IMG/VR virus record: IMGVR_UViG_3300035698_018106
Coordinates: 38,717-102,716 of that record
Length of the DNA stretch: 64,000 bases
Reading direction: 5' to 3' (one strand)
DNA from: a virus
Under the pieces are notes generated by a model, which saw nothing but the letters and a program-made list of their open reading frames with translations, had not been told where the DNA came from and made no database searches. Of this stretch, positions 14,408 through 64,000 are shown piece after piece (the stretch's first letter is position 1; the number at the start of each line of letters is the position of its first letter). The position numbers and the translations under genes were made by a program.

Positions 14408-14454
14408 ATTGCTTTAATTGTTTTATGATGAAATATTATAATAGTTTCTATTAT

Positions 14455-15081: not shown

Positions 15082-15231
15082 ACCTATGTATTTATGTTAT
15101 TTTAATTATCATTTGTATATAATAAGAAAAATAATCTAAGATTAATGCATATTATTCCTAGATACATTTTTCTTATGTATTAAAATATAGAATTTGGCCT
15201 AACGTTATTATACTCGAAAGTATTAAGGTTA

Positions 15232-27054: not shown

Positions 27055-27825
27055 TTATCTAATAAATTCTCGAATGCCTGAATAATGTATATCTTTATTA
27101 TTATCACGAATTATAAATCGCTTTTTTTCAATTACTATTAATTCTATAATGTCTTTTATTTCATAACTTAAATTTAATGAATCTAATATTTTTTGAATAT
27201 CAAAGTTAACATCATATAAAAATATTCTATCTACATCGATATACAATATATTAGAAGTATATTTATAAATCATTCTTTTAAATACATCTCCTGTATAATT
27301 AGCTATATCTTCTGGACTATCAGCATATATAAAAAAGTCAGATCCTTTATAATTTAAAGCTCCCCATGTATAATTTAATAAAACCTTAAGTAGAAAATAA
27401 GTTTCAGGATTACCATGTTTTTTTACTTCAACTCTTTTATAAAATAAATTTTGAAATAAATTACCGAATTCAAATATATTAAAATTTATTGCATTATTAT
27501 TGATAAGATTTACTAAACTATTTGGATAAAGAGAATTAAATTCAATAACTTTACAGTCTTTATGTATTCTCATCTTAGCTTTATTATTTAACATTACTGT
27601 ACCGCATCGATTAGAATCAATACGTTCTAAATTATTTTGAGTTTTATATCCAGGATAAAATATATCTAATAATTTTTTAATTATCTGATTATAATCAGAT
27701 AAACTGAAACTAGATCCATTTAATTTATTTAAAATAAAGCTAGATCCATTTAATTTATAATCTTTAGTAAAATGGTAAGAATCAAGAACAGAACATAGTT
27801 CTTTAGTGGAAATAATAGTTTTCAT
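27055..27825 (-). CDS. Family B DNA polymerase motif A-like fragment (EFNSLYPNSL) with an internal 30-bp tandem duplication
   Basis: KVIEFNSLYPNSLV matches Pol B motif A (DxxSLYPS), but Glu replaces Asp. KLNGSSF is repeated twice. Confidence 0.35.
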   Translation of the reverse strand: MKTIISTKELCSVLDSYHFTKDYKLNGSSFILNKLNGSSFSLSDYNQIIKKLLDIFYPGYKTQNNLERIDSNRCGTVMLNNKAKMRIHKDCKVIEFNSLYPNSLVNLINNNAINFNIFEFGNLFQNLFYKRVEVKKHGNPETYFLLKVLLNYTWGALNYKGSDFFIYADSPEDIANYTGDVFKRMIYKYTSNILYIDVDRIFLYDVNFDIQKILDSLNLSYEIKDIIELIVIEKKRFIIRDNNKDIHYSGIREFIR

Positions 27826-36852: not shown

Positions 36853-38340
36853 TTAAAATAAATTTGATCCAGTGATTTCCATTTCATCTATTGCAGCAAG
36901 AGGGTTAGATGCATCTAGATCTTTAATTGTTGGAGAATTATTCTCAAATGCTTGGATTGAAGATCCTACAAAGGATTCTGGAGATACCGGTTTTCCTGGT
37001 ATTGGAGCAGCAACTACACTATTTATAATATAATCCATATCTTGTATAGGTGAATCTCTATCTTCTTCAATTTTTGCATATTTCCATTGAATGGTATATC
37101 TCTTTTTAGTATTTTCATAACCAGATACCCTATTAGCTAAACATTTAAGATAATATTCTCCTCTTGCTTTCATTTCTGCATTAGTAATTATACCAAATAA
37201 TACATCAACAGTATGTAACAATGCAGCCGATTCAGAAATATTAGTTGTGTTTAAATCAGTAGTTTCCCATCCACCTCTATTTGTTTGTGTAGCAGTAATC
37301 ACACACCATTTACCTTCAGATGCCATGGCTCTTAAATCCTCTGCAATCTGTTTAATTTTCATATAGGTATTTTCAGTATTAGGATTTCTCCAATTTTTCA
37401 TAATATTAATGTAATCAACAAAAATATTATCGAATTTAATACCTAAAATTTCTTCTGCTTTAATTAAATAAGCCTTTAAATCATTAACAGAACAAGATGA
37501 TGCTGGAAATTCTTTTACATGCAGAACACCTAAATCTTTAAGAGATCCACTTCTCATTTTATGGATATTATCCTTTAATAAAGATTGATCCTTTGCCCAT
37601 TCTTCATAATCATCCATAGGAATATTAAAAGCATTTGAACCAATTCTCATATTAACAATTTCTTCCTGCAGTTCAAATGTTATGTAGGCAGTATTATGTC
37701 CTAATTGAGATGATTTTAAAGCTAAATTACCTAACCACATTGATTTACCTGCTTTTGGACCACTAAGAAAGGTTATAAGAGATCCTTTCCAATATCCCCC
37801 TTTTAAACATAAATCAATATAATCATATCCTGTAGTTGTTCTAGCTAATCTAGATTGTAAGTGAGTTGCTGCATCATAAAAATCAGAACCCATATTAAAA
37901 CTAAAATCAATAGATGTTTCAGTAGTTAACATATGTCTGATTTTCTCAACAACTTCATTTGCGTTTTCTGCAGTTACTTTAGTTGTTTTCATGAAAGCTA
38001 TAGCTTTCCTCATTACATTATCTAAATTACGAACCTGAATCCATGGCCCAACATTTTGTTCAAGCCATTCACTATCATAATTTGCAAGTAATTGTTTTGT
38101 ATTATAAAGTCCTTCTACTTGTTCAATACTAAATCTTTCAGCGTAGCCTTTTATCCTTATAAGTTCCATCATCTGATCTTTAGAAGGTGGAGTTTTATAT
38201 TGCAATGCATGTATCTTTGCAATATCGAATAATTCCCTCATATCAACATTTTGAAAATATTCAGATTTTGAAGAATTTAAGAAAATCTGATTATCTAATA
38301 TATAATGGTAAAAAATTTGTTCCTGATAGGCTGACATCAT
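36853..38340 (-). CDS. Replicative DNA helicase, DnaB-like (T4 gp41-like)
   Basis: GYDYIDLCLKGGYWKGSLITFLSGPKAGKS Walker A context. RecA-like fold. Confidence 0.65.
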   Translation of the reverse strand: MMSAYQEQIFYHYILDNQIFLNSSKSEYFQNVDMRELFDIAKIHALQYKTPPSKDQMMELIRIKGYAERFSIEQVEGLYNTKQLLANYDSEWLEQNVGPWIQVRNLDNVMRKAIAFMKTTKVTAENANEVVEKIRHMLTTETSIDFSFNMGSDFYDAATHLQSRLARTTTGYDYIDLCLKGGYWKGSLITFLSGPKAGKSMWLGNLALKSSQLGHNTAYITFELQEEIVNMRIGSNAFNIPMDDYEEWAKDQSLLKDNIHKMRSGSLKDLGVLHVKEFPASSCSVNDLKAYLIKAEEILGIKFDNIFVDYINIMKNWRNPNTENTYMKIKQIAEDLRAMASEGKWCVITATQTNRGGWETTDLNTTNISESAALLHTVDVLFGIITNAEMKARGEYYLKCLANRVSGYENTKKRYTIQWKYAKIEEDRDSPIQDMDYIINSVVAAPIPGKPVSPESFVGSSIQAFENNSPTIKDLDASNPLAAIDEMEITGSNLF

Positions 38341-38781: not shown

Positions 38782-40179
38782 TTAATCGTCTGTTTCTTCA
38801 ACTTGATCATGATCACCAGCTTCTAATTCTCTATCATCCATTTCAGTTCCGGCTAAATCTTCTGTTACATCAACTAAATCTTCTAATGATTCAATAGAAG
38901 GTAGCATAAATGTAGGTTTGATTGTAGTTTCATCTAATTCTCTAAGTACTTCTTCAGAAAATACTTCTGGTGTATAAAGATTTCCTAATGGTACCTCTCC
39001 ACCTAAATGTTTACATACTAAAGTTCTCGCTGTATCTCTTGGTTGAGCATATTTCACAACATGTTCTTTTACAAAATTATCGCCATCAATTACAATCACT
39101 TTCTTTTTGTCTTTTTCATTTAATTTTTTGAAAGCTACACTTGAAAGTTTAACATTTTCATCTGTTTCAAATTTATGACAATTCGCTTGTTCTTTTTCAG
39201 ATAATTTTAAATATTCTTTTTCAGATAATGCTTTACCTCTAACAATTCCACAATTTTCCCAAGATACAAACTTTTCTAATCCAACATAAGGATTAGGTTT
39301 CTTATAAAAAGGAATATGAATTTGAGTTTTAATAGGTCTAGCAAATCGTTGCTTAGTTGGGGATACGGTTACCACAATTCCAACTTTAGTATGTTTATCT
39401 AAACCTTTCTTTTCAACCTGTTCTTCTGAATCTTTATCAGTTAACTTAGATTTAGTTAACATAAAAATCATAGATGAATTATATTTAAGTCCACCACCAC
39501 CAGAAACAGTATTACCACCGAAAAATGAACCAATTGACGCATATACGTGGTTACAAATAATAAAAGGGACAGCATTCTTAGCAAAATCAGTACCTACAAC
39601 TCTAAACGTTCTACGAATAGCTTGTTGTTTAGTCATATCTCTTTTATTAGAACCTTCTGTAGTATCTTCTTTTTCTTTTGTGGATGAAAGGTTTCCTAAT
39701 GAATCTAATACTACTATAACCTTTGGGGGGATGTCACCTTTTTCTCTTATAGCACTGAGCGTTTCATTTAACTTTGCTGTTAGATGAGCAAATTGTTCAA
39801 TCGTAGAAATATTTTCTATTCGTATTTTAGAAGTATCAATTCCTAATCGTTTTGCAAAATCAATATCAATACCGCCTTCGGAATCATAGTATACTACAAA
39901 ATATCCCATAGCCTGAGCATTTCTGCATATACTCATTGCTAAGTATGTTTTACCTGTTCCTTCTTCTCCTGCAAAAGTTAAAGATCTTCTATTTGGCATT
40001 CCACCAAATAAGGAACCACTTAATGCAGCATTTAAAATATAAGGACCGGTTGGGATAAATTCATCTATTCTAGCATATATACTTTTTTCTAGAATATCTC
40101 CATCAGGAGAAAAAACACTTAGTGCATCATTAAGTTCACTAAATGAAACAGTTTTTTTATTTGCATTCTTTTTAGCCAT
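38782..40179 (-). CDS. uvsX: RecA-like recombinase UvsX
   Basis: Walker A TFAGEEGTGKT and DSLGNLSSTKEKED (compare T4 DSLGNLASKKETED). Acidic C-terminal tail. Confidence 0.8.
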   Translation of the reverse strand: MAKKNANKKTVSFSELNDALSVFSPDGDILEKSIYARIDEFIPTGPYILNAALSGSLFGGMPNRRSLTFAGEEGTGKTYLAMSICRNAQAMGYFVVYYDSEGGIDIDFAKRLGIDTSKIRIENISTIEQFAHLTAKLNETLSAIREKGDIPPKVIVVLDSLGNLSSTKEKEDTTEGSNKRDMTKQQAIRRTFRVVGTDFAKNAVPFIICNHVYASIGSFFGGNTVSGGGGLKYNSSMIFMLTKSKLTDKDSEEQVEKKGLDKHTKVGIVVTVSPTKQRFARPIKTQIHIPFYKKPNPYVGLEKFVSWENCGIVRGKALSEKEYLKLSEKEQANCHKFETDENVKLSSVAFKKLNEKDKKKVIVIDGDNFVKEHVVKYAQPRDTARTLVCKHLGGEVPLGNLYTPEVFSEEVLRELDETTIKPTFMLPSIESLEDLVDVTEDLAGTEMDDRELEAGDHDQVEETDD

Positions 40180-41815: not shown

Positions 41816-42991
41816 TTAAAATAATGAACGCGCATATATTAAATTTCCAGGAACTTTATTAAATCCAGCAGATGTCATAAATCTATTAAAAGGTTCAATT
41901 ATAATTTTTTCAAATTGTAAATCATAATCTACATCAGGGGCAATTTCAAATGGATAATTTCCAGGTAAGAAACCAAATGTCCCTTGATCATTTTTAGCAT
42001 AAAAATACTTTAATTTATCACCTGTTCTAATTAAATTATATTTAGTTTTCCATTTAGTATTTAATAACGAATTGTTATAAATAGCTGCAGATCTAACATT
42101 TATAGGACATTTTGGAGCTAATCTAATTTCTTTTCTATCTTCTAAAACATATTTTTCATAATCTCCTATTGATACAGTTTTTGCTATATCATTAGGATCT
42201 TGTAATAAAAATTGTTTTTTATATTCTTTGAGTTTTTTTACTATTTCTGAATATTCTAATTTATCATTTTTTTCAAAAATCTCATTAAGCATTGCTTTTA
42301 ATACCTTTCTAGAAAATGCCGGAGTAGATCCTTGTACAACTTCAACACCAACTGGAGTTATTTTTTGTTGTGGTTTAAAAGAAATTCCAGGATCTTTCCA
42401 TGCTAAATCTAAGATATATTTTTTCTTAGCAACCATAAGAGCAGAATATGAAATTTTCTCTAATTCTAAATCTTGTAAGTTTTTAGTATTAAATTGTGCC
42501 GCATATTCATCAAATTTTACTTTAATATATCCTTCTAATCTTAATTCTTTAATTTTTAATATAAGATCTTTTGGATCTCCTTTCCAGTCACAAGATTTCA
42601 CAATTGGATCTAATGTAACATATGTTGAATCTGTATCATTATAAATTACTATAGTTGATGCTTGTACTTTATTAGCATATGTTAAACCAAGTTTTTCATG
42701 TAATGATTTATCTAAATGCCATTTGTTTAAAAAATAATCATCTAGAAAATCATTAGCATATTTAATCATATTTTGACCTTGAAGCGTAACAGCTTCAGCT
42801 AATGCAACATTATAACATTCAAACCAAGGAGATCCAACACCACCATAAATTGAATTAATAAAGATTTTAATAGATTGCTCTAGATTAAAATATTCTTCTT
42901 TCAAAGATTTAAGTCTATTTATTTCTAGATCTAATTCTTCAATAGAACAATTATATGGATCTATTTTTACTAATTCAAATTCAAAACTCAT
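41816..42991 (-). CDS. Family B DNA polymerase C-terminal fragment (palm motifs B and C plus thumb)
   Basis: KIFINSIYG (motif B, Kx3NSxYG), YNDTDS (motif C, YGDTDS) and KKKY (KKRY). No motif A and no exonuclease domain. Confidence 0.75.
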   Translation of the reverse strand: MSFEFELVKIDPYNCSIEELDLEINRLKSLKEEYFNLEQSIKIFINSIYGGVGSPWFECYNVALAEAVTLQGQNMIKYANDFLDDYFLNKWHLDKSLHEKLGLTYANKVQASTIVIYNDTDSTYVTLDPIVKSCDWKGDPKDLILKIKELRLEGYIKVKFDEYAAQFNTKNLQDLELEKISYSALMVAKKKYILDLAWKDPGISFKPQQKITPVGVEVVQGSTPAFSRKVLKAMLNEIFEKNDKLEYSEIVKKLKEYKKQFLLQDPNDIAKTVSIGDYEKYVLEDRKEIRLAPKCPINVRSAAIYNNSLLNTKWKTKYNLIRTGDKLKYFYAKNDQGTFGFLPGNYPFEIAPDVDYDLQFEKIIIEPFNRFMTSAGFNKVPGNLIYARSLF

Positions 42992-43040
42992 AATCTATTT
43001 TTAATTTATTATTGAAAAATAGACTATAAGTTTCAAAAGA

Positions 43041-43220
43041 TTAATTAAGACTTATGTTAATTTTTGAACCATTACCTGGATTCCATACGATAAAAAGTCT
43101 ATGGCCACACCTTTTACTCTCAAATGCAGCAATAGCAGCCAACCTCATGTATTCATATGGGGTAATATGTCCATTTTTAAGATAGAGCTTAATATCACCA
43201 CTTAAATTATTTTTTTCCAT
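43041..43220 (-). CDS. Possible small ORF (59 aa), absent from the ORF track
   Basis: MEKNNLSGDIKLYLKNGHITPYEYMRLAAIAAFESKRCGHRLF... Confidence 0.2.
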   Translation of the reverse strand: MEKNNLSGDIKLYLKNGHITPYEYMRLAAIAAFESKRCGHRLFIVWNPGNGSKINISLN

Positions 43221-43286
43221 AATTGGTTTATTTATAATGGCAATATAACCAATTAATGTTAATTAAAAAATGTTAATTACAAATAT

Positions 43287-44066
43287 TTACTCTAATGTAT
43301 TTAATACTTCTAACACTTTTGGTATGATTTTATTTCTAACACATTCTTCGTTTACAAATTCAACTGTGCCAACAAAATCGTGTGGTTCAAATCCAGAGTG
43401 CACTTTCTGTAAACATGATGTATTCTTAGCTTTTCTATCGATTTGCTCAGTGTCACCAATAAATATCATTTTACTATTTCTACCTATGCGGGTAATTATA
43501 GTTTTAAATGTATGCATATCTATATTCTGAGTTTCATCAATTATAATAATTGAATTATCTAGAGTATTACCTCTAATAAAAGCAATAGGTTCAACACCAA
43601 TGGTTCCATCTGCTATAAGTGCCTTAGTAACACCTCTATCACCAAATATTTTATTTAAATTACCAGTATACGATGTCATATATGGTTCCATTTTTTCTTG
43701 TAAAGTTCCAGGAAGAAACCCTGTTTCTTCTCCTTGAATGGTTTGTAATGATTTAATTAGAATTATTCTTCTATATTGTGGACTTGTTTTTAAAATATGT
43801 AAAGCAGTTATTAAACTTAAATATGTCTTACCCGTTCCGGCAGGGCCTACACAAATTGTGATTTCATTATTCTCAATTGATTTTTTTAACTTCTTTTGTT
43901 TTTCATTTTCACATTTAATTTTTATGGGTATGTCGTTAATCTGAATTTTATTAGTACCTGTAGTTTTCTGTTTGCGATCAAGCCATTGGTTAACATCCTC
44001 GACGTCATCCTTGGATAAATTTTTCTTTTTTGCCATACAATACTTATTTTTAATTTTAGTTATCAC
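43287..44066 (-). CDS. phoH: PhoH-like ATPase
   Basis: VGPAGTGKTYL Walker A and DETQN Walker B. Classic PhoH layout. Confidence 0.85.
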   Translation of the reverse strand: MITKIKNKYCMAKKKNLSKDDVEDVNQWLDRKQKTTGTNKIQINDIPIKIKCENEKQKKLKKSIENNEITICVGPAGTGKTYLSLITALHILKTSPQYRRIILIKSLQTIQGEETGFLPGTLQEKMEPYMTSYTGNLNKIFGDRGVTKALIADGTIGVEPIAFIRGNTLDNSIIIIDETQNIDMHTFKTIITRIGRNSKMIFIGDTEQIDRKAKNTSCLQKVHSGFEPHDFVGTVEFVNEECVRNKIIPKVLEVLNTLE

Positions 44067-44130: not shown

Positions 44131-45945
44131 TTATAATTCATCTAAATAACTATCATAAAAATTAGTTGTTTTATGTTCTTTCCATTTCTTAAATGTTTTA
44201 TCAACTGTTTGTTCATTCTTCCCTTCAGTGCGTCTATTTTTATTAACTATTTTTATAGCTTTTTGACTTATTGTATCAAATACATAATTTTCGAGCACAT
44301 CTATTTCTATGCGTTCGGGCTGAAACACCATAAAATAATCAACATTTGAGCTACTACTATATTCATTTCCTATATCATCCAAATCTAATTGTAATTGTAA
44401 AGGATCTTTAACATATTTAATAGACATTAATTCAGATATTTTTATTAAGTCTAGATTATTTCGCTTTATTTTAATTCTTCTAACTTTTTCTTTTCTAGAT
44501 TGTTTAATTTGTTGAATCTCTATAATTTCGGAATTAGCATTAGGACCTTTTAAAATAGCGTATGTAAAGTTAGTATTAGTAGAAATAATTTTTGAATATA
44601 AAAATTCATTAACTAAACAATAGAATACTTTTAGTATTGATATTTTACTAGAATTAACTTCACCTGCATCAATGGCTGAGCCAACTATTCTATTTTTTTG
44701 ATAAGGATTATCTGATGCAACTAATTCCCATACTTTAAATAAGTTATCATTAGCTTTTAAATTTTTAAGAGTTTTTTCTAGATTTTCTTTTCCATAATCA
44801 TTCATTATATCTCTAGCCATTTTTATAGTTCGCTCTATTTCTTTCCACCAGCTAAATCTAGTTAATGCCCCATGAGCTCCCAATCTTATAGATCCCCCTG
44901 CATCAGAATAATCCTTTAATTCATATGTTACATTATCAATGATAATATCGGCACCATCTTCTTCGTTTTTTATAGTAATATCATAAGATTCTGATCCTCC
45001 TGCAAATTTTGAATTTTGTACTAAATAAGCTATTAATACTTCACCCCTTCCCATTCCAGATGGTTCAGTTATCATAAGTACTTCTAAAAAACCTGCTCCT
45101 TTACTATTTTTATTAGTTTTACATACTATCTTGTCACTGTATGTGCCGTCTGTGTTAATATCTTTTAATGTATGAGAGTTATATTTACCAATGAATTCTA
45201 ACATGTCAGATAGCCAGATATCAATTTCTTCTGGACTATTTAATGCTAGTAATGTTAATCCTTTTTTTACTTTAAACTTTTCTCCAGGTTGTATAGTTTT
45301 AGCTATAACTTTTGATATTAAACTAAACAAAGTATTTAATTCTCCTACTATAGATTTGCCTCCAGATTCTGTAACATTTTTTATGAAACTATTCCACTCG
45401 TTGATTTTATTATTTTTTTTAAAAAAAGGAGAAATATTAGTTGGTATATAATATTCAGATTCAAAATTACCAGATTTAGTAGTAGATTTAGAAGAGGATT
45501 CTTCATTTTTAAGTTTTTCAACTTTTTCTGATATTTCTATTGAATTATTTAATAATTGATAATTCCAAAACTTTCCATATGTAGTAGAAATTGGAAATAA
45601 AGGTATTTTAAGTGGAACCCATCCAGAAGGAGTTTTTCTTTTTAATTCTCGCTTTGCTTTATCAGAATTAATTTTAATATTATCTAACACATCAGAAACA
45701 TTTAAATTAGTTTCGCTAGTTATAAAATTAGATATATGTTTCCTATGATTCCTAGGAAATGTTAAAATATCATCCCATATAGATATGATATCATTTTTGC
45801 GTTTATTATTTACATGCACAATATCTCTAGATATTGGATCTATTAATATATTAGAGTTTATGGCTCCAACATATGTGCCTAATAATTTTTCAAATTTACC
45901 TTTTGGTAATTCTTCGGTTCCTGTGTTATTAATACAAAATGACAT
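44131..45945 (-). CDS. Large protein with a possible PD-(D/E)xK nuclease core
   Basis: GEVLIAYL...DIIIDNVTYELKDY gives an E...D...ELK pattern. The N-terminal 300 aa is unassigned. Confidence 0.3.
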   Translation of the reverse strand: MSFCINNTGTEELPKGKFEKLLGTYVGAINSNILIDPISRDIVHVNNKRKNDIISIWDDILTFPRNHRKHISNFITSETNLNVSDVLDNIKINSDKAKRELKRKTPSGWVPLKIPLFPISTTYGKFWNYQLLNNSIEISEKVEKLKNEESSSKSTTKSGNFESEYYIPTNISPFFKKNNKINEWNSFIKNVTESGGKSIVGELNTLFSLISKVIAKTIQPGEKFKVKKGLTLLALNSPEEIDIWLSDMLEFIGKYNSHTLKDINTDGTYSDKIVCKTNKNSKGAGFLEVLMITEPSGMGRGEVLIAYLVQNSKFAGGSESYDITIKNEEDGADIIIDNVTYELKDYSDAGGSIRLGAHGALTRFSWWKEIERTIKMARDIMNDYGKENLEKTLKNLKANDNLFKVWELVASDNPYQKNRIVGSAIDAGEVNSSKISILKVFYCLVNEFLYSKIISTNTNFTYAILKGPNANSEIIEIQQIKQSRKEKVRRIKIKRNNLDLIKISELMSIKYVKDPLQLQLDLDDIGNEYSSSSNVDYFMVFQPERIEIDVLENYVFDTISQKAIKIVNKNRRTEGKNEQTVDKTFKKWKEHKTTNFYDSYLDEL

Positions 45946-47299: not shown

Positions 47300-48730
47300 T
47301 TATTCTTCAGATTCATGAAGTTCTAGTTCTTTTTCATAAACATCATCTCCATTCCAAACCATCATACCATCTATTTCTTCTAGATCATTTGTATCAAATA
47401 AATCTACAACATTCTTTTTAGATCCAACTCCCCGTTCAATTGTTGGATCTTCAATTGATTCAAATAATTTTTTTGCAGCATTAAATTCTTTTAATTTATG
47501 TAATAATTCTGTTTCAAATCTCTTAATTTCAGATATTGTAAATTTTAATTCATCTTCTGTTAATTTTCTAGCAGTTAATCCCTCTAATTTAGGACGTACA
47601 TTCTTTGGATAATCGCTTAAAAAATCTGTTATTTCTTGATCAGATCGTTTCTTACCCATCATAAACATAATAAATAATTTCTTAGCTTTATTAAATTCTA
47701 GACTATCCTTTAAAGTTTCACGTTCCCATTCTTTATTTCGATAATCTAATCGAAGTAATTGCCATTTAAAATCAGTAAGATATTGTTCAATATTTTGGTA
47801 CACTAAAACTTGACCATCTTTTATAAAAACCGGATTTTCTGTTACAATAATAGAAAATGATTTGGTAATATATGCTTGTAATTCCTTAAATTGTTCTTTA
47901 GAATTTCCATTATATACAATACTAATATCAACTTTAGTATTAGAGTTATTAATAATTCTTACTTTGCCTTCAAATTTTAAAATAAGAGCATCTAATTTTT
48001 TAAGAACAGTTCCATATTTAAGTATTGGTGGTATTTCATCTATTTGAATTTTCTTATCTTCTATAGTAAATATTGATGATAATTTCCAAGTACTTTCTTT
48101 ACCATTATATCTAGCAATTTGTCCATTAAATCCTTCAAAATATGGTTTTACAGATTTTCTCTTACCTGCCATAAATTCTTTAATATGGTTCAAGTTCCTA
48201 GGAAGAATAGTGGTTTTATATCCAACAGCAATACCAACAATAGAATTTGTTAATCCTAATGGAACTTCCATCCAAAACGGGTCGTATGGTCCCTCAGGCT
48301 CCTTTGTGGTGAGGTATTTATATTGGTTAAGTATTCCTATGGTCTTACTACTAAGTTTCACTGAGGTGTATCTAGCAGCGGCGGGGTCTGGACTAGCTTC
48401 GGTTCCAAAGAATCCATATCCTTCAAGTATCTGAAGTGCATTACCGAAAGGTCTGGCTAATTTATTAAGGGCTCCAGTGAGACTTGAATCGCTGTGGTGA
48501 TATCCGTCTTGGATACATTTTCCGACAACGGTAAGGGATTTATTAAAGGTATTTGGACTGTTCTTAAGTATGAAACGTTGTACTGGGGTAAGGGCATCAT
48601 AGAAACTTGGTATTCCTCTGGCCTCCAAAACATAAACTGCATAATCTCTATATTTGGTATCTATAAATTTTGATATAGGTAACTTAATTATTTTCTCTTT
48701 CGGTTTCGTCAGATCTCTGTTCCTTGCCAT
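47300..48730 (-). CDS. DNA topoisomerase II DNA-cleavage subunit (GyrA-like, T4 gp52-like)
   Basis: RDYAVYVLEARGIPSFYDALTPVQRFIL matches the GyrA active-site region. Confidence 0.7.
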   Translation of the reverse strand: MARNRDLTKPKEKIIKLPISKFIDTKYRDYAVYVLEARGIPSFYDALTPVQRFILKNSPNTFNKSLTVVGKCIQDGYHHSDSSLTGALNKLARPFGNALQILEGYGFFGTEASPDPAAARYTSVKLSSKTIGILNQYKYLTTKEPEGPYDPFWMEVPLGLTNSIVGIAVGYKTTILPRNLNHIKEFMAGKRKSVKPYFEGFNGQIARYNGKESTWKLSSIFTIEDKKIQIDEIPPILKYGTVLKKLDALILKFEGKVRIINNSNTKVDISIVYNGNSKEQFKELQAYITKSFSIIVTENPVFIKDGQVLVYQNIEQYLTDFKWQLLRLDYRNKEWERETLKDSLEFNKAKKLFIMFMMGKKRSDQEITDFLSDYPKNVRPKLEGLTARKLTEDELKFTISEIKRFETELLHKLKEFNAAKKLFESIEDPTIERGVGSKKNVVDLFDTNDLEEIDGMMVWNGDDVYEKELELHESEE

Positions 48731-51478: not shown

Positions 51479-52714
51479 TTATTTCCCAAATCCGACGTTT
51501 CGTTTAAAATCTTCAGATTTATTATTATTATCAGCTGAAACATATATATCTGCTAATGTCATAGGTTCTTTAACTTCTATATCATCGCGGCCTAATTTTT
51601 CAAGTAAAAATTTAGATTTATTAATTGCTAATTTTTCAAATTTATAACTAATAAGTAGTCTACCTTTTCTTAATAAAGCTTCATCTATATCTTTTTCTTT
51701 CGTATTTAATGTTACTACAATAGAAATATTTAAACAATCAGATAATAATCCATCAGTTAAATTAAGAATATTTGATACAGCTCCAGTTCTTCCCGAGAGT
51801 TCTCTTTTTCCTATAACCGGTTCTCCATCTTCAATAATAAGAATTGCATTAGCATTTTCCATTAAAAATGGAATAAATGCTGGTTCTGTTATATGGTTAA
51901 CCATATCCGGAGATATAAAAATAATATTTTTCTTTAATTTATGAGCAAGATGTCGCAAATAAGTAGTTTTTCCTGTTCCTGGATCTCCTCTAAGAATAAC
52001 AAGATTAGAAGTTTTTCTCTTATTAAGACCATCTATAATCTTATTTGATATATCACTAAATCCATTATTATAATTTTCATCTAGATTAATTTTACATGTT
52101 TTTACAGTGAATCCAGTTTTTTGAAAACCATGAGAATCTTGATATACAATATAAATTTTATTTTTTATATTATTTGGTACCACAACACCTTTTATTAAAC
52201 TTATCATAGTATGAAGAGGACTTCTACTATCTGTTTCTATATGTTTAGGATAAAAAATCATTGCTGTGTCATGATTAACATAAACATAAATAGAAAAAGA
52301 TTTATACTTAAGTGCAAAAGCAGAACTATAAAGTTTTATTAATCCATTAGAATCTCGTATAGATTTATAATAAGCTTCTTTAGGAACATTAGTATATTTA
52401 AATAATTCAGAAATAAATTTTTCACTTATAACATTTCGTAATGTATATACATCAGGTTCGATATTATATAGTTTATGATATCTATAAGCAAAATAAGATT
52501 CTTTATCATAGTCATTTAGGTATCCTTCTTGCCCATCTGCAGATTTCATAATATCATTAATATTTCCCCATATAATGTCTTTTAATATTTCTTTAGAAAA
52601 TTTTTGTTTTTTAATAGGTTTAAAAAAGGTATTTTTCATTCCGCTTATTTTTTTAGGTTTATCACTTCCATCCCAAAATTCATCTTCAGTAAGTACGGGC
52701 ATATGCTCAATCAT
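51479..52714 (-). CDS. AAA+ ATPase
   Basis: LVILRGDPGTGKTTYL Walker A and ILIIEDGE Walker B. Confidence 0.5.
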   Translation of the reverse strand: MIEHMPVLTEDEFWDGSDKPKKISGMKNTFFKPIKKQKFSKEILKDIIWGNINDIMKSADGQEGYLNDYDKESYFAYRYHKLYNIEPDVYTLRNVISEKFISELFKYTNVPKEAYYKSIRDSNGLIKLYSSAFALKYKSFSIYVYVNHDTAMIFYPKHIETDSRSPLHTMISLIKGVVVPNNIKNKIYIVYQDSHGFQKTGFTVKTCKINLDENYNNGFSDISNKIIDGLNKRKTSNLVILRGDPGTGKTTYLRHLAHKLKKNIIFISPDMVNHITEPAFIPFLMENANAILIIEDGEPVIGKRELSGRTGAVSNILNLTDGLLSDCLNISIVVTLNTKEKDIDEALLRKGRLLISYKFEKLAINKSKFLLEKLGRDDIEVKEPMTLADIYVSADNNNKSEDFKRNVGFGK

Positions 52715-52717
52715 TTT

Positions 52718-54526
52718 TTATCCTCCGTTTTCTAACCATTTTTTTCTTTTATGAGAACTAGTTCCAAATGCAATATCTAGAAACTTATTCGCGCCTCTAT
52801 CATATATTATTTGGAATAAAGCTTTATTATTCATTACATGAGTCCAATCTTCTATTGATAAAGATCCTAATCCTTTTAAGTAAGTTATATTTGAAACTTT
52901 TTTAGATTTAGAATATTCATGATATTCATCCATAGAATAAAAATATTTTCTTTCTTTTCCATAATTACACGCAACTAAAGGTGTAATTATTTTATATAGT
53001 CTTTTGTCTTTAATAATATGAGGAAACCATTTATAAAATAAATTAATAATCAAAGAACTAATATGTTGTCCATCTGGATCTTCATCAGCAGCGATTACAA
53101 TTCTATCAAAATCTGGCATTTTTTCATTATCAGGTTCTATATTTAAAATGCTCATAATTTCTAAAATTTCTGCATTATTGCTTAAATCTGATAGTTTCCG
53201 AGTATTTTTAACTTTTCCTTTTAATGCATATACTCCTTCTGATGCAGCTTCTCTTGCCTGTTTAACACTACCCGCCGCCGAAAGTCCTTCAGTTACATAA
53301 AGTGTCCCTTTCTTCCTAGAAGGTGGACTATATTTTTCAGATATCTTTCTTTTACTTTGTCGTTTTGCTTTCTTTATCTTAGAAATACTTTCAGAATGTA
53401 ATCTATCCTCAATACGTTGTTCAATACTATTAGATATATCTGATTTTTTTAAACTTCTAATTAATTTAGTTTTAAAATTCTTAACTAAATCTTCTTCCAA
53501 TTCTCCTCTACTCGTATCAAGTTTTGATTTATTTTGATCAGCCCATCTCATTAATTGTGATGGTAAATTAATAGATAACCAAGTTTCAAAGAAATGATGC
53601 GATAAATTATACTTAAAATAATCATTACCCCAATCATTTACTATCTTTTGATGGATTCCTGTACATTGTGATCCGTTAACAAATGATAAAGAACCAGAGT
53701 TTTCATACGATTCCCATAAATATAGTGTTCCGAAATCTGTATTGACCGATATAAAATCACCTTCTATGAATTCAGAAGTGACATTCATGGGCATTTCTTT
53801 ACCATCTTTAATAAACTTACATTCCAGATTTAAATCCTTTATAATAGGATCAGACTTAATCAGAAAGGATTTGAATGAAAAATATGTATTAATTAATTCT
53901 TCATCCCATTTATATCCAGGAAATTGAGGTTTAGAAGGAATAAATGATACAGATGTACCAATTAAATCTCCTTTTTTCTTTTTTCTAATATCTTCTTTTA
54001 CTACTTTAAAATCTACCCAATCATAAGATACAGAATGAGTTTTATTAACTGTAGATATTTTAAAAGATTCAGATAAAATATTAGTAACGGCAGCACCAAC
54101 ACCATGAGTACCTAAAATATTTGATTCTGTATCAGAAAAATTAGATCCTGCATGTAATTCTTCCATTGCAGTTCTAACTACATTTTTTTTAGTTTTAGAA
54201 TGTATAGAATTAGCTTTATAAAATCCATTACCTTCATCTGTAATAATAACTTCATTTGTATCTAAATCAACAGTAACATGTACATTTTTCATATTACCAT
54301 TACAACGTTTGGCTTCATCTAATGCATTTTCTAAAACCTCAACTATTAAATGCATATAACCGGGTGACCATGATTTTTCAATCATCTTGATTTTATTATC
54401 AACGATAATTGGTATTTTTTCTTCTACATAAGCAACTTGACCTATATACATTCCTGGACGAAGACGTACAGCTTCAAATGTATCTAATGCTATAATCTCA
54501 TTTGAATGTTTTTGTTTAATAGTCAT
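52718..54526 (-). CDS. DNA topoisomerase II ATPase and Toprim subunit (GyrB-like, T4 gp39 plus gp60 fused)
   Basis: EAVRLRPGMYIG, HLIVEVLENALDE and VTEGLSAAGS (Toprim). Confidence 0.8.
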   Translation of the reverse strand: MTIKQKHSNEIIALDTFEAVRLRPGMYIGQVAYVEEKIPIIVDNKIKMIEKSWSPGYMHLIVEVLENALDEAKRCNGNMKNVHVTVDLDTNEVIITDEGNGFYKANSIHSKTKKNVVRTAMEELHAGSNFSDTESNILGTHGVGAAVTNILSESFKISTVNKTHSVSYDWVDFKVVKEDIRKKKKGDLIGTSVSFIPSKPQFPGYKWDEELINTYFSFKSFLIKSDPIIKDLNLECKFIKDGKEMPMNVTSEFIEGDFISVNTDFGTLYLWESYENSGSLSFVNGSQCTGIHQKIVNDWGNDYFKYNLSHHFFETWLSINLPSQLMRWADQNKSKLDTSRGELEEDLVKNFKTKLIRSLKKSDISNSIEQRIEDRLHSESISKIKKAKRQSKRKISEKYSPPSRKKGTLYVTEGLSAAGSVKQAREAASEGVYALKGKVKNTRKLSDLSNNAEILEIMSILNIEPDNEKMPDFDRIVIAADEDPDGQHISSLIINLFYKWFPHIIKDKRLYKIITPLVACNYGKERKYFYSMDEYHEYSKSKKVSNITYLKGLGSLSIEDWTHVMNNKALFQIIYDRGANKFLDIAFGTSSHKRKKWLENGG

Positions 54527-58133: not shown

Positions 58134-59231
58134 TTATTCATCATGTTTTAGAATAAATTTATTAGATATTACTTTAAATGATAATCTTCCTTGATAATCA
58201 TCTATTGGTCTTGTATCTGGAAATATTTCAGATTCAGCAACAAAAACAATACCTTCTCTTGCAGTATCTCGTAAAGCTGACCTCCCATCTGCTAATTTTA
58301 TTAATTCATCAATTGTATCAGGAAGGGTCATATCTTTTTCTATTACTGGAACAGTTTTTAATCCCATAGATACACAGGCATCATCAAATTGCTCCCACGG
58401 GAGAAATTGGTATTTAAGAGGATCAAACATTCTAAATAACCTAATAGTTTGTCCTTTAATTTTATATTTATTTGATTGGATACCTTCACCTATTAATTCT
58501 CCTTGTAAAGTTAATGCTTTCAATCCATGTTCTTTCATATAGATACGCATCTCTTTTTCAATATTTAAAACTCTAGCAACTTTCCAAAGTGAATTACCTT
58601 CACTTTCTAATAATTCTAGGTTTCTAGAGCTTACTCCAAAGATATCATCATATATAGCATATGAACAAGATGAACCATCTAATTTTTCAGTAGCTACCCA
58701 AGTATAATTATCATGATAATTTTTGTAGCTATCTATTAAATTTTGGATTCTGTTTTCATCTGTTTTAATAGAATGTGATGGGAAATTACCTTTAGCTATT
58801 CCATCTAAACAAGCAGGTATAGGTGGATCATATTTTATAATACCAAGAGTATCTGTAACATCTGCGCCAACTGGTTCTATAAAACCAATTTCTGGATTTA
58901 TTTCAACTGCTAGCCCTGATGGTGTATCTAAAAAGCTAACAGACATTGGTAAAATACTCAATGGGAATGTAATTCCTTGACTAATAACTCCTCTTAATTT
59001 AGTTGTTTTAATTCTATATTTTCTAGGAGCTAAAAATTCAAATTCTGGACGTTGCGGCATAAGTGAATCAATTTCACAATATATACCTAAATCTCCTTCT
59101 TTAAAATCTCCTTTTTTAATAACGACATTCCATCCTCTGATTGTACATTGCTCTATATTATCAGCACCTGTAATTGGTCTAATATTAGTAACTTTTTCAA
59201 TTGTCGCTAGTTTTCTTTTAATTTCTGACAT
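58134..59231 (-). CDS. ATP-dependent RNA ligase (KxDG nucleotidyltransferase) with an N-terminal OB, tRNA-binding-like domain
   Basis: ATEKLDGSS motif I. The N-terminal IRPITGADNIEQCTIRGWNVVIKKGDFKEGDLG fits a tRNA-binding OB-fold pattern. Confidence 0.5.
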   Translation of the reverse strand: MSEIKRKLATIEKVTNIRPITGADNIEQCTIRGWNVVIKKGDFKEGDLGIYCEIDSLMPQRPEFEFLAPRKYRIKTTKLRGVISQGITFPLSILPMSVSFLDTPSGLAVEINPEIGFIEPVGADVTDTLGIIKYDPPIPACLDGIAKGNFPSHSIKTDENRIQNLIDSYKNYHDNYTWVATEKLDGSSCSYAIYDDIFGVSSRNLELLESEGNSLWKVARVLNIEKEMRIYMKEHGLKALTLQGELIGEGIQSNKYKIKGQTIRLFRMFDPLKYQFLPWEQFDDACVSMGLKTVPVIEKDMTLPDTIDELIKLADGRSALRDTAREGIVFVAESEIFPDTRPIDDYQGRLSFKVISNKFILKHDE

Positions 59232-60168: not shown

Positions 60169-61389
60169 TTAAATATTAATATTTGAAACATAATTAAATG
60201 TATCTGTTTTAGATTTCCAATCAAATACATTTTCTAGTGCAGCTTTTCTAATTTTCTCTAATATTTGACCAATTTTTGGCAGATCTTTTTTAGATGAAAT
60301 ACCAAAAAGTTCCATTATTTCGTCTCCATTTATAAGAATATCAGAATTAGAAGATGGAATTTTACCTGCATTCATATCTAAAATAATATTTGCCATATCT
60401 GTTGGTAATAATACAACATTAGACATTATAGGGAGCTTAGACATTGTTTGAAGAGTTAAATACATTTGATCTGTTTCTCCTAAATTATCCCAATCTCTTA
60501 AAATATTATCTAATTTAAGAATTGCCGTTCCAACTTTTTGTTTATCAGATCCTTTAATTTTTTTCATGTAAAAAGTATAAGGATCAACACCTCCAACTAA
60601 GCCCATCATATAATAAAAAGATATTGGATCTAGATCATCAAAGCCTTTATCATAATGAAGCATTTTTTTATTAAATAATGCTTCATCAGCTCCTGTTTCA
60701 TGAAGAAGATTAATAGCCATTTGAGTACTACCACCTTTATTTAGAATTTTTTGAAATTCATCATAGATTCGTTCGCCGGCGATCTCTTTAATAAGATGAG
60801 AATTCTTTTTCATTAAATCCATAGTACCTTTTTCGATATTGAATCTAAATCTGGCGGCAAATTGGATGCCTCTTAAAATTCTTAAAGGATCCTCTATAAA
60901 TGCATTCTTATCTGTTGCTTTAAGTAATCTATTATGCAAATCTTTTAGTCCATTAAAAGGGTCTAGTAATTCATCTGACATTATATTAACAGCCATTGAG
61001 TTAAGAGTAAAATCTCTTCTTTTTAAATCTCCATGAACATCAACTCCATCTGTAACTACTTCAAAACCTTTATGTCCTGACCCTATTTTTCTATCTTCTC
61101 TAGGTACAGCTACATCATAATCTTCACCAACATGACCTTTAGGCTTAAATTTAATAACTGAGAATGATTCACCTTCTACATTAGCTCTTCCATATTCTCT
61201 GAGAATTTTAAGAATACCAGATACAGATAATCCATCTACGATAAGATCTATATCTTTCATAGGTTTTTCTAAATATGCATCACGAACACTACCTCCTACC
61301 ACATATATTTCTGCGTTAGAAGCCATTTTTTGAATCCATATATGTTTTCTTAGATTTTCTGTTATTTGTTTTAAACTTTCAGGTATCAT
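60169..61389 (-). CDS. cca: tRNA nucleotidyltransferase (CCA-adding enzyme or poly(A) polymerase family)
   Basis: GGSVRD...DIDL head motif, RRDFTLNSMA and EDPLRILRGIQFAARF. Confidence 0.8.
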   Translation of the reverse strand: MIPESLKQITENLRKHIWIQKMASNAEIYVVGGSVRDAYLEKPMKDIDLIVDGLSVSGILKILREYGRANVEGESFSVIKFKPKGHVGEDYDVAVPREDRKIGSGHKGFEVVTDGVDVHGDLKRRDFTLNSMAVNIMSDELLDPFNGLKDLHNRLLKATDKNAFIEDPLRILRGIQFAARFRFNIEKGTMDLMKKNSHLIKEIAGERIYDEFQKILNKGGSTQMAINLLHETGADEALFNKKMLHYDKGFDDLDPISFYYMMGLVGGVDPYTFYMKKIKGSDKQKVGTAILKLDNILRDWDNLGETDQMYLTLQTMSKLPIMSNVVLLPTDMANIILDMNAGKIPSSNSDILINGDEIMELFGISSKKDLPKIGQILEKIRKAALENVFDWKSKTDTFNYVSNINI

Positions 61390-61628: not shown

Positions 61629-62114
61629 TTAATTGGTACTATTAATATTATTAATTGGTACTATTAATATAATATCGCTATAAATATATTTAGTTTTCCA
61701 ATTTGATATATATTTTTTCCTATCTAGTAATAACCATTTAGAAGAATAACCTGGCTGTATAGTTCTAGTATAATATTGTTTAATCCTAGGAGATTCTTTA
61801 TCGGTCTCATTAACATAAACATTATTAGCATATAGTTCCATACGTTTTACACCTTGTGGATATATACCTCGAATGATATATTTAGATGTAGCTGATCCAG
61901 ATATCGTTCCACATCCTAATATAAACGAACCATGTAATTCCTGACTAGAAGAACTATACGCAGATTGAATTAATAAATCCTTTGTTTCTGAATATTCAGG
62001 GTGGAGATAATCTAATTTATCGCGGAAAAGAACAAAGCCTACTATAAAGATCGTAAAAATATTTTCGGAATATCCATATAACTTATATAAGTTATAGTTG
62101 CAATTAATACACAA
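61629..62114 (-). CDS. Hypothetical protein. The 3' end contains a perfect 22-bp tandem duplication.
   Basis: ORF. The C-terminus INNINSTN is encoded by the repeated unit. Confidence 0.35.
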   Translation of the reverse strand: MCINCNYNLYKLYGYSENIFTIFIVGFVLFRDKLDYLHPEYSETKDLLIQSAYSSSSQELHGSFILGCGTISGSATSKYIIRGIYPQGVKRMELYANNVYVNETDKESPRIKQYYTRTIQPGYSSKWLLLDRKKYISNWKTKYIYSDIILIVPINNINSTN

Positions 62115-62144
62115 ACTCCGAAAATTATATAAAAAGCCATATTT

Positions 62145-62612
62145 TTATTTTTTTATAGACCAACTAGGGTCCGGTAAATAATTATTATATTTGCAATGTC
62201 TCAAAAATGAAAATAATTCAAGCCATTCTAATTCTGGAGAAAATCCTGCTTTGTCATCAAAAAGAGTATTAAAATAAAATTTATTTTTATAATATCCAAA
62301 ATTCCCTTTAGCAGTATCTATTTCTGGATTTTCATTGACATATTTAAAATTAATATTATTTTCTTTAAATACTTTTTGATAATGTTCTATTTCTTCTGGA
62401 TATGATGATGTGTATAATATTAATATAATATCATCTCTTTTAGATAAAAGTTGTAATGTCTCTTTTGCCCATGGGTAAAAATCAGAATCAAAGCTATTTT
62501 TCCTATATGTAGGTATCAAAATAGTACCATGAATATCAAAAGCCCAATAAGTTTCATACCATTGTTTCTCAAAAGAATGTTTAAACATTTTTAGTATCCA
62601 ATGTTTCATCAT
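62145..62612 (-). CDS. Hypothetical protein, possibly a HAD-like phosphatase
   Basis: WAFDIHGTIL resembles HAD motif I (DxDGT), but the second Asp is His. Confidence 0.2.
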   Translation of the reverse strand: MMKHWILKMFKHSFEKQWYETYWAFDIHGTILIPTYRKNSFDSDFYPWAKETLQLLSKRDDIILILYTSSYPEEIEHYQKVFKENNINFKYVNENPEIDTAKGNFGYYKNKFYFNTLFDDKAGFSPELEWLELFSFLRHCKYNNYLPDPSWSIKK

Positions 62613-63121
62613 TTTATTCTGTATTTTTCTAATCCTGTCCTAATTGTTTCAATAGCAGATAATTCCATACTTAACAAAAACATATCTTCTAAATTCTTTA
62701 CAATATATACATTAGGATATTTTAGTTTTTTTAAATGAGCTTTAACTAATGCTCTTGCTCTTAAAGATTCTTTTTTAAGAAGCTCATGCTGAATCATTTC
62801 ATTCATACTCATGGGTATATCATCCAAAACATCTAGATTTTGATCAATCATAATGATGACATTTCTATTAGTGTCTGCTTTAATAGCCTGTAAAATAGAA
62901 AATCCAACTTCTGACAAAGATCCAGTACCATATGTTTCATTAGTAACGGGAAATAAAATTATTTCATCGTTAATTAAATGTTCTGCTTCAATTACTGCAT
63001 CTTCAGGTTTCCATTCATCTACCTGAGGATTATAATATTCTACATCATTTTCTTGATATCTTTTCATGAAGCTATCTCTCCATATACTACCACCACATGT
63101 ACCAAATAATCCTATTGTCAT
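62609..63121 (-). CDS. Nucleoside 2-deoxyribosyltransferase-like (DNPH1/Rcl-like) protein, second paralog
   Basis: GLFGTCGGSIWRD...IILFPVTNETYGTGSLSEVGF pattern. Confidence 0.45.
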   Translation of the reverse strand: MTIGLFGTCGGSIWRDSFMKRYQENDVEYYNPQVDEWKPEDAVIEAEHLINDEIILFPVTNETYGTGSLSEVGFSILQAIKADTNRNVIIMIDQNLDVLDDIPMSMNEMIQHELLKKESLRARALVKAHLKKLKYPNVYIVKNLEDMFLLSMELSAIETIRTGLEKYRIK

Positions 63122-63300
63122 TTTGTTTTTTCTTTTAAAATATACGAACTTAATTGTACTATTTGTTTAAGATTTAAAGAATTTACATCATCTGTTGAAT
63201 AGTAATCATTTGCATATTTTAATCTATCTTCATTTGATAAATTATTCCACCAGTCAAATGCAGAAGATGGGGTTTGTTTATGTTTCTTTATTTTCATCAT
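63118..63300 (-). CDS. Hypothetical protein
   Basis: 60 aa ORF. Confidence 0.3.
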   Translation of the reverse strand: MMKIKKHKQTPSSAFDWWNNLSNEDRLKYANDYYSTDDVNSLNLKQIVQLSSYILKEKTK

Positions 63301-63450
63301 AATTTTTTATGCATATCCCATTTAAATGGATTAAAATAAAACCAATAATATTCTTCCATAATATTACAGCAGTTTATCCATGTACATCCATATCTATGTT
63401 TAAATTTATTCTTAAGTTCTTTTTTAAGTTTTCTAGGTATTCTTTTAAAC

Positions 63451-63660
63451 TTATACATATTTATGAAATATTCTTAATCCAATATTTACCACATGTAAAA
63501 ACACGATAGGTGGTATAATATCAATAAAAATATCTTTAAATGTTGGTGCATCTGGAAGAATTACAATCATAAAAGTGAAAATTAACCAAATTAAATTTAT
63601 AATACCAAACATATACAAAAATCGTATATTTGCAGTTTTTATTTGTTTTTTGTTACTCAT
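63451..63660 (-). CDS. Small membrane protein
   Basis: Two transmembrane helices. Confidence 0.35.
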   Translation of the reverse strand: MSNKKQIKTANIRFLYMFGIINLIWLIFTFMIVILPDAPTFKDIFIDIIPPIVFLHVVNIGLRIFHKYV

Positions 63661-63662
63661 TT

Positions 63663-63974
63663 TTAAAAATCTCCATAAGTTTTAATTTCTATTCCTTTTT
63701 TAAGTGCTTCTGTCATTTTTTTAGAGATAGAAGATGGATTATCAGTAATAAGAAATTTACATGATGGATCATTTAATTTATTGACATCATATAAATTTGG
63801 ATATTTAGCTAAAAAATCTTTTTTTGTTTTAAATCCATATTCTTTAGGTGATCCGGTCATAACAACAGGAATGATATTTGGATCTTCTTTAATATCAATA
63901 GGTCTATCAATAATTACACCTAATGATTCCAATCTACAAATAGCAGTATCAATATAAGTTACTACATCAGGCAA
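63663..63974 (-). CDS. BRCT-domain protein. Possibly the C-terminus of an NAD-dependent DNA ligase whose gene may continue beyond the window end.
   Basis: VVMTGSPKEYGF...FLITDNPSSISKKMTEALKKGIEIKTYGDF resembles the LigA C-terminal BRCT domain. Confidence 0.35.
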   Translation of the reverse strand: MPDVVTYIDTAICRLESLGVIIDRPIDIKEDPNIIPVVMTGSPKEYGFKTKKDFLAKYPNLYDVNKLNDPSCKFLITDNPSSISKKMTEALKKGIEIKTYGDF

Positions 63975-64000
63975 ATGTAATTTAGCAACTAATGCTTTTT

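Follow-up and report, generated by a model that had tools for sequence, protein, structure and literature searches.

In the Aeromonas phages 44RR2.8t and 25, the T4-type replicative family B DNA polymerase (PolB), gp43, is encoded in two cistrons that break the protein at the tip of its fingers domain. In 44RR the products 43A and 43B are 498 and 391 amino acids (aa) long and the cistrons are adjacent, 49 nucleotides (nt) apart; in phage 25 they are separated by a homing endonuclease gene. Among cellular PolBs, those of the archaea Methanothermobacter thermautotrophicus and Nanoarchaeum equitans are each the product of two genes located far apart in the genome; they are split at positions other than the one described here, and N. 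equitans ligates its halves by a split intein. Here, we examine a stretch of 64,000 nt of viral DNA, referred to as the window (IMG/VR record IMGVR_UViG_3300035698_018106, positions 38,717 to 102,716), in which a 391-aa open reading frame (ORF), 41816-42991, very likely encodes one subunit of a T4-type replicative PolB that is naturally split in two, with the break at the fingers tip. We call this ORF product the C piece and its partner the N piece. The pieces of the phage 25 gp43, each translated separately, co-purify and are active, according to the passage of PMC2988022 that cites Petrov, Ratnayaka & Karam 2010, and Pfu polymerase engineered with a split at the fingers tip also stays active (PMC3061061). 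In the Pfu enzyme the break lies near the fingers tip between two long helices and leaves an active two-chain enzyme, as is proposed here, but it is a laboratory product of translational termination and re-initiation in one gene, whereas two dispersed genes would be involved in the phage.

The ORF 41816-42991 represents only the C-terminal ~45% of a T4-type PolB. A sequence-only reading of the window had described it as the C-terminal third, with motifs B, C and KKRY and with neither motif A nor an exonuclease domain, and this domain content was borne out by profile and sequence comparisons. The Pfam family DNA_pol_B (PF00136) matches the ORF at 2e-18 and 66.9 bits against a cut-off of 23, and the match spans profile positions 153-236 of 453, all of them past motif A. 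With phmmer, residues 35-310 of the C piece pair with residues 553-816 of RB69 gp43, in such a way that SIKIFINSIYG falls on the motif B region, YNDTDS on motif C and KKKY on KKRY. The ORF is also matched end to end (1.2e-60) by phrog_1918, a stand-alone 'DNA polymerase' family of 382 positions. From its N to its C terminus, the C piece consists of the second fingers helix with motif B (KIFINSIYG), the palm motif C (YNDTDS), KKKY, the thumb and a tail ending in ...SLF. All of the gp43-type motifs KxxxNSxYG, YxDTDS and KKRY are represented in it, and K42, Y49, G50, D121, S122 and Y192 are invariant in a 25-sequence alignment of C pieces. Exonuclease motifs I-III and motif A are not on this polypeptide, which starts past the first fingers helix. 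When compared with eight full-length polymerases, the C piece matches only their C-terminal part (residues 456-806 in S-SKS1, residues 502-877 in P0123); the closest of the full-length relatives, which include P0123, P0141, P0149 and P0159, is P0123, 49% identical over that part.

The remainder of the polymerase was not found in the window. Among 59 window ORFs, which take in nearly all those with at least 120 aa, Pfam recognized no DNA_pol_B_exo family and no second DNA_pol_B match, in agreement with the earlier statement that exonuclease motifs I-III are missing from the ORFs of the window. When S-SKS1 gp43 and seven full-length relatives were used as tblastn queries, only 41819-42976 was matched at E ≤ 1 in the whole 64 kilobases (kb), and no other polymerase part. 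By these searches the N piece is absent within 21 kb upstream and 41 kb downstream of the C piece. Two further long ORFs were weighed and rejected. The 604-aa ORF 44131-45945, taken as a diverged N piece, has no Pfam or PHROG match, is not matched by full-length PolBs in tblastn and is a separate gene in relatives, and the 867-aa ORF 6-2609 is rich in glycine and alanine, has hydrophobic stretches, shows no family match and does not resemble a polymerase.

Both pieces belong to large and well-conserved families. A search of 5.8 billion proteins gave 681 homologues of the C piece at E ≤ 1e-10; among the 120 of these that were listed, 116 are 386-402 aa long and 64-83% identical, three reach 553-563 aa owing to an intein domain, and one has 387 aa. 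Stand-alone homologues of ~390 aa number in the hundreds, at identities of 33-83%. When 1.84 billion cluster representatives were searched exhaustively with the C piece by HMMER, 1734 matches at E ≤ 1e-10 were obtained. The best 150 of these clusters were sorted by N-piece and C-piece hidden Markov models: 85 are stand-alone C pieces, a further 36 are C pieces that contain an intein-size insertion, 19 are partial, and only 10 are full-length polymerases. The N-piece family, searched for with the N-terminal 478 aa of P0123, has 1645 matches, and the best 120 of them are all stand-alone proteins of 455-496 aa with the exonuclease family PF03104 and the start of PF00136. The invariant elements of their alignment are DIE (Exo I), GWN..FD..Y (Exo II), Y..D (Exo III) and DFxSLYP (motif A). 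Exo I-III and motif A (DFASLYPS) are on the N piece (~460 aa), together with the first fingers helix, just past which it ends.

The intein-size insertion seen in 36 of the 150 best cluster representatives lies at motif C (YxDTDS), and the C piece of the Lak-A2 phage is among the many that have it. The intein family PF14890 was recognized at motif C in P0031, P0058, P0066 and Lak-A2. Polymerases with this intein are therefore interrupted twice, once by the split of the gene and once by the intein.

This conservation bears on whether the 391-aa ORF might be a spare fragment or what is left of a pseudogene, with replication carried out by a full-length polymerase elsewhere in the genome or by the host. 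The rest of the genome is not visible, and a minority of related lineages (the 10 full-length entries among the best 150 clusters) do have an undivided gene. Yet the length and the catalytic residues of the C piece are kept over hundreds of homologues down to 33% identity, the ORF holds the canonical position of gp43 in the gp43-UvsX-gp41 order, and Lak phages, other huge phages and the isolate MA9V-1 have N and C matches at separate loci and never one full-length gene, which makes a remnant very unlikely. Domain content and conservation instead argue that the split polymerase is composed of two separately encoded pieces and is not decaying.

The place of the break can be read from both families. 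N pieces end in ...YYG.RK.AK....E.EI..LK.Y and C pieces begin ~25 residues ahead of the motif B helix, and when the fragments are aligned to full-length references, both broken ends fall in the variable segment at the fingers tip. In 44RR, 43A ends and 43B starts in this same variable segment, and the 391 aa of 43B equal the length of the ORF studied here. The arrangement of the genes differs. The cistrons of 44RR adjoin each other, whereas the partner of the C piece lies beyond the window, at a distance of no less than 21 kb, with PhoH and other genes upstream of the C piece where an adjacent cistron would be; and in place of the endonuclease gene of phage 25, relatives of the present phage have unrelated genes (ribonucleotide reductase (RNR), ligase, topoisomerase, PhoH) between the halves. 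The identity between 43B and the C piece is low, so the split may be independent in the two groups.

The sequence-only reading had proposed at least three non-adjacent pieces. The gene is indeed split, and its missing part is neither adjacent to the C piece nor in the window; the number three does not stand, since the N piece ends exactly where the C piece begins and nothing is left for a third piece. In the three-piece version, the 256-aa ORF 27055-27825 would give motif A and the fingers, the ORF 41816-42991 would give motifs B and C, and an unseen piece the exonuclease. Its appeal lies in the string EFNSLYPNSL, which is truly motif A-like, and in the homology of the 256-aa ORF to the PolB palm. 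However, motif A and the first fingers helix are already present in the N-piece family, which in alignment reaches the start of the C piece with no gap, and in the 256-aa ORF motif A is followed by a motif B, a motif C and a KKRF of its own, contrary to the earlier view of it as the fingers segment that precedes motif B. Beyond 12-19 columns it has no detectable similarity to gp43-type N pieces, and relatives whose helicase and C piece are 58-66% identical have unrelated ORFs or a homing endonuclease at its position. No close homologue of it was found in the 5.8 billion proteins, against hundreds for the C piece. A split into three pieces is on these grounds exceedingly unlikely, and the two-piece polymerase is retained in what follows.

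The 256-aa ORF consists of a ~65-aa N-terminal domain and a ~180-aa palm with short fingers, and it has no exonuclease domain and no thumb. Its motifs are EFNSLYP(NSL) for motif A, KVLLNYTWG for motif B, YIDVD for motif C and KKRF. Single-sequence searches with it gave no match in Pfam or in a word index of the 5.8 billion proteins, and a single-sequence structure prediction reached a predicted local distance difference test (pLDDT) score of 37 and was unusable. By tblastn against phage genomes, homologues were found in two huge phages, LR745206 (32% identity, E 9e-10) and LR756501 (E 4e-7), and these in turn led to weaker homologues in LR756504 and LR756502. In IMG/VR, a pattern search based on a three-member alignment of the family gave none. 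The proteins of this phage and the four huge phages are 210-456 aa long, and no Pfam model recognizes the family. The order of elements in the five sequences is a glycine before motif A, motif A as [EDS]FNSLYP, a helix rich in arginine and lysine, motif B as K...N..[YW]G, motif C as YIDxD, and KK[RK][YF]. In motif C, all five members keep D197 and D199, and the acidic position of motif A is Glu in the window and LR756504, Asp in LR745206, and Ser in LR756501 and LR756502.

A profile of the five members matched family B polymerases in 50 of 50 PDB matches, the best being Deep Vent polymerase (1.4e-8, polymerase residues 386-612), and a profile limited to the three firmly related members still matched Deep Vent (4e-5) and Pol alpha (1.8e-4). 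The recognition of EFNSLYPNSL as motif A thus reflects real homology, and the ORF is by no means unrelated to polymerases. The profile matches PolBs of the archaeal and eukaryotic type; RB69 gp43 is not among the PDB matches, and the ORF is therefore no recent copy of gene 43. By hhalign, the ORF or its family aligned with gp43-type N pieces over only 12-19 columns around motif A at probabilities of 0.5-9%, alignments that are short because the long T4-type fingers break local alignment. The elements follow the same order and spacing as in the palm-fingers core of PolB (Deep Vent/Pfu ~386-612, PDB 5h12); the ORF differs in having only ~180 such residues with ~50 aa from motif A to motif B, in lacking the PolB N-terminal domain, and in having an extra N-terminal domain of ~65 aa. 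T4 gp51, the baseplate hub assembly catalyst (PF12322), was considered as another identity and rejected. The likeness is restricted to 21 N-terminal columns (ILD..YPGY), hhalign of the five members against seven gp51 sequences gave a probability of 5% and a P value of 0.0075, tblastn gave E values of 6-7, and PF12322 does not match the ORF.

The locus of this ORF, between an XPD-like helicase gene and the next conserved ORF, is variable among relatives. A GIY-YIG endonuclease is encoded there in one of them and small unrelated ORFs are present in another, and relatives with a polymerase and helicase 58-66% identical are without the 256-aa ORF at that position. As judged from its motifs and profile matches, the ORF product is a separate, self-contained mini palm-fingers paralogue and not part of the split replicase, and it cannot be the segment ahead of motif B in the replicase. 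The sequence-only reading had offered a decaying paralogue as its alternative; a paralogue it is, but one with an intact ORF, whose family is retained by no fewer than four other huge phages. Its catalytic competence is uncertain, since Glu takes the place of the motif A Asp here and Ser does so in two homologues. It may still work as a nucleotidyltransferase, since the Asp pair of motif C, the Lys and Asn of motif B and the Lys of KKRY are retained, and it may be a minimal or template-independent polymerase, a repair enzyme or a signal-synthesizing enzyme rather than an inert relic. Taken together, two bolder proposals are rather unlikely to hold: that the family is the smallest stand-alone PolB module yet seen, perhaps with working nucleotidyltransferase activity, and, separately, that the dispersed two-gene replicase is ancestral or dominant in a very large clade of T4-related and huge phages.

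The halves might also be joined after translation by a split intein, as in the N. equitans PolB, or by trans-splicing of RNA. Inteins are frequent in the PolB C-piece family, but they lie at motif C, and the sequence ...DPYN/CS... at residues 11-16 of the C piece resembles an intein C-terminal junction only superficially. Just 14 residues precede that junction, far too few for the C fragment of an intein, and DPYNCSI also occurs inside the uninterrupted, intein-free full-length polymerase P0159. N pieces end a few residues past the first fingers helix and have no C-terminal extension, which leaves no room for an intein N fragment of ~100 aa. Pfam recognized no intein domain in the ORF 41816-42991, and both pieces have conserved start and stop positions. 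The split-intein motifs that the sequence-only reading advised looking for at the fragment ends are thus absent from these ends, and in this the phage pieces differ from N. equitans. We regard such joining as highly improbable.

Two chains that stay separate are the arrangement we favor. From the domain content of the families, the N piece (~460 aa) would supply an N-terminal domain, a 3'-5' exonuclease, the catalytic aspartate of motif A and the first long fingers helix, and the C piece (391 aa) would add motif B on the second fingers helix, motif C, the primer-binding motif KKKY and the thumb. With a start and a stop codon for each of them, the pieces would be translated separately, so that the active site would exist only in a non-covalent heterodimer of the N and C pieces, probably held together by antiparallel packing of the two fingers helices and by the completed palm. 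We infer that this heterodimer forms and is active. The C-terminal tail of the C piece may bind the sliding clamp, by analogy with T4 and RB69 gp43.

In relatives, the two halves lie at distances that vary widely. In more than 20 of 80 IMG/VR loci centred on N pieces, the N piece is followed on the same strand, after 2.7-8 kb, by a C piece, as in L071 with the N piece at 10001-11374 and the C piece at 14047-15177. Larger gaps were found by intersecting the contig names from N-piece, ligase and C-piece scans. Three contigs syntenic with the window have N-C gaps of 23 kb (UViG_3300037067_008064), 40 kb (UViG_3300044580_000214) and 58 kb (UViG_3300037104_000796), with C pieces 61%, 69% and 66% identical, respectively, and same-strand gaps across IMG/VR contigs range from 2.7 to 58 kb. 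On the first of these contigs, where the loci L113 and L130 are ~240 base pairs (bp) apart, the order is N piece, 8 kb, nicotinamide adenine dinucleotide (NAD)-dependent ligase, topoisomerase gp39, AAA protein, topoisomerase gp52, a 260-aa ORF, ~3 kb and C piece, which is the gene order of the window itself. Complete huge-phage genomes (Lak-A2, LR756504, LR756501, LR745206, LR756502) each have a single N match and, at another locus, a single C match. In Lak and several other huge phages the halves are hundreds of kb apart and on opposite strands; Lak-A2 has its N piece at 123052-124464 on the minus strand and its C piece at 345487-347614 on the plus strand, and LR756504 has the N piece at 255869 on the plus strand and the C piece at 537995 on the minus strand. 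The Lak-A2 C piece begins at the same split point and bears the motif C intein. LR756500 has one N match, with its best N and C matches ~13 kb apart, and a second C match besides. In the isolate Chryseobacterium phage MA9V-1, ORFs of 495 aa and 425 aa (ORF135 and ORF138) are separated by two genes, and the genome paper gives both without remark on a split (PMC10537231). No description of a dispersed split PolB in huge phages was found in the literature searched, which is not proof of absence. On the sequence evidence assembled here, a large clade of phages normally has its polymerase split in this way, as a dispersed variant of the known 43A/43B arrangement.

For the present phage, the N piece is predicted ~30 kb upstream of the C piece, beyond the right end of the window. 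At that end an NAD-dependent ligase gene is cut, and its 3' end forms the last ORF fragment of the window (63663-63974); the ENA contig L108, which is 100% identical to window positions 61743-64000, runs 1.9 kb further and contains the complete 636-aa ligase. Fragments with 100% identity occur in the samples ENA ERZ27315796, JGI 3300023501 and SRR7529087. Two relatives share the genes at the right end of the window (ligase, a 155-aa ORF, CCA-adding enzyme and RNA ligase), and the placement rests on the position of the N piece in these syntenic relatives, 8 kb (L114) or ~14 kb (L046/L119) upstream of the ligase. As a separate observation, the ligase match in the related IMG/VR loci L116, L117 and L119 is in two blocks ~0.8 kb apart, which suggests an intein or intron.

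Several points weigh against this placement and against the two-subunit interpretation itself. The N piece of this genome was not seen, scans of IMG/VR and JGI contigs for DNA patterns just past the window were blank, and the exact C-piece protein is not on record. The ligase-syntenic relatives are only 44-58% identical in the ligase, and the ORF directly upstream of the ligase differs from that of this phage in most of their loci, so the predicted distance is rough; the 170-aa ORF 62609-63121 has matches only on contigs of at most 4.2 kb. Transcription signals do not separate or join the units in an informative way, as all consensus matches are at chance level: 23 copies of the T4 late-promoter consensus TATAAATA were found against 32 expected, and sigma-70 and terminator scans were likewise at chance.

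Lak phages recode a stop codon, and the nearest database relatives include Lak phages, which raises the question of whether an alternative genetic code, or a misassembly, makes one long gene look broken. The window is, however, dense in long ORFs under the standard code (code 11), the sequence upstream of the C piece is PhoH and not polymerase in every frame, and the same gene order recurs in independent JGI, ENA, Logan and IMG/VR assemblies. The chance of such an artefact is practically negligible, and the break is taken to be a feature of the gene.

The C piece lies among replication genes (Table 1). The window has a G+C content of 25-32% and nearly all of its genes on the minus strand. It contains a T4-like set of UvsX-like RecA, gp41-like DnaB, gp46/47-like Rad50/Mre11 and two topoisomerase II subunits, and T4-like virion genes for a gp20 portal, a gp4-like head closure protein and a gp2-like DNA end protector. 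The order C piece-UvsX-gp41 equals the gp43-UvsX-gp41 order of the T4-like cyanophage S-SKS1. In the 295 bp upstream of the C piece (42992-43286) there is just a 59-aa ORF, as had been noted from the sequence, and then the PhoH gene, which occupies the site of the N-terminal half of gene 43 in an unsplit arrangement. The order PhoH, small ORF, C piece is kept in relatives, and in these the topoisomerase subunits and the AAA protein lie between the N and C pieces. An ORF of 59-77 aa is found directly upstream of the C piece in at least six relatives (L003, L006, L007, L009, L128 and L159); these small ORFs share a pattern (ME..., ...A.IE...K.F..., with the end LN or KN), and their sequence likeness is weak. 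The 59-aa ORF itself has no Pfam or PHROG match. It is possibly co-transcribed with the C piece, and its product is possibly a small companion protein of the C piece.

Table 1. Coordinates, strand and supporting evidence of features in the window and of the mini PolB homologues
Feature	Position	Strand	Basis or remark
Sigma-70-family protein, regions 2 and 4	14455-15081	(-)	phrog_1740 RNA polymerase sigma factor
Thymidylate kinase	15907-16659		
Mini PolB-like protein, 256 aa	27055-27825	(-)	Family profile against PDB, five-sequence alignment
gp41-like DnaB helicase	36853-38340	(-)	Pfam DnaB_C
UvsX-like recombinase	38782-40179	(-)	Pfam RecA
PolB C piece, gp43B-like, 391 aa	41816-42991	(-)	Pfam, PHROG, RB69 alignment
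Small ORF, 59 aa	43041-43220	(-)	49 nt upstream of C piece; conserved
PhoH-like ATPase	43287-44066	(-)	Pfam PhoH 4.1e-56
Topoisomerase II subunit, gp52-like	47300-48730	(-)	Pfam
AAA protein	51479-52714	(-)	Pfam
Topoisomerase II subunit, gp39-like	52718-54526	(-)	Pfam
RNA ligase	58134-59231	(-)	
CCA-adding or poly(A) polymerase-like enzyme	60169-61389	(-)	
NAD-dependent DNA ligase, 3' end, cut by window edge	63663-64000	(-)	L108 identity; synteny anchor
Mini PolB homologues	L100:3986-4636, L101:3908-5278, L104:3968-4840, L105:2890-3519		Four huge-phage genomes

Other genes of the window also show features of their own. The 604-aa ORF on the minus strand upstream of PhoH, which belongs to no Pfam or PHROG family, is kept between the topoisomerase genes and PhoH at 26-43% identity, and a GxGE...D...ELK-like pattern seen in it by eye may indicate a putative PD-(D/E)xK nuclease. 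The UvsX-like recombinase is one intact 465-aa ORF in the window; in a 79%-related phage (L003:13275-16202), the recombinase ORF has 306 aa and an intein domain match, and a gene for a DUF7487 protein (385 aa) lies directly downstream. Copies of the DUF7487 gene also flank the PolB C piece in L003, which looks like traffic of mobile elements around replication genes. Between the ligase and topoisomerase gp39, the minus strand at 54.5-63.2 kb has ~9 kb of extra genes compared with syntenic relatives, among them those for the RNA ligase and the CCA-adding or poly(A) polymerase-like enzyme; the block is partly shared by some relatives. The thymidylate synthase gene (2941-4017, plus strand) is unusually long, with 358 aa against a profile of 266 positions. 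Directly downstream of it, a 247-aa ORF (4062-4805, plus strand) with NUMOD3 and I-TevI DNA-binding domains is a relative of GIY-YIG-type homing endonucleases, and the pairing recalls the td intron and I-TevI of T4. Among the smaller window ORFs, a batch Pfam scan recognized two nucleoside 2-deoxyribosyltransferase-like ORFs; a TnsA-like endonuclease N-terminal domain, a DUF932 protein and a gp30.3 homologue are also present.

A replicative polymerase with an active site built from two proteins is known from a few Aeromonas phages, in which the cistrons are adjacent; here the same split at the fingers tip prevails in a large clade, uncultured for the most part, to which the Lak megaphages belong, with the halves scattered over the genome. 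Gene callers and marker-gene surveys based on PolB will count such genes as truncated, duplicated or pseudogenes, phylogenies made from one piece rest on about half of the polymerase sequence, and completeness checks can mislead on contigs with one half only. The mini PolB ORF represents a previously unmodelled family and illustrates that a motif match can be true homology and yet suggest the wrong role. If the dispersed replicase is ancestral or dominant, the halves of a replicative active site would be under separate transcriptional control. The dispersed split raises the questions of how matched amounts are made from different transcription units, how the halves meet, and whether the fingers tip is a structural hot spot that tolerates or attracts insertions.

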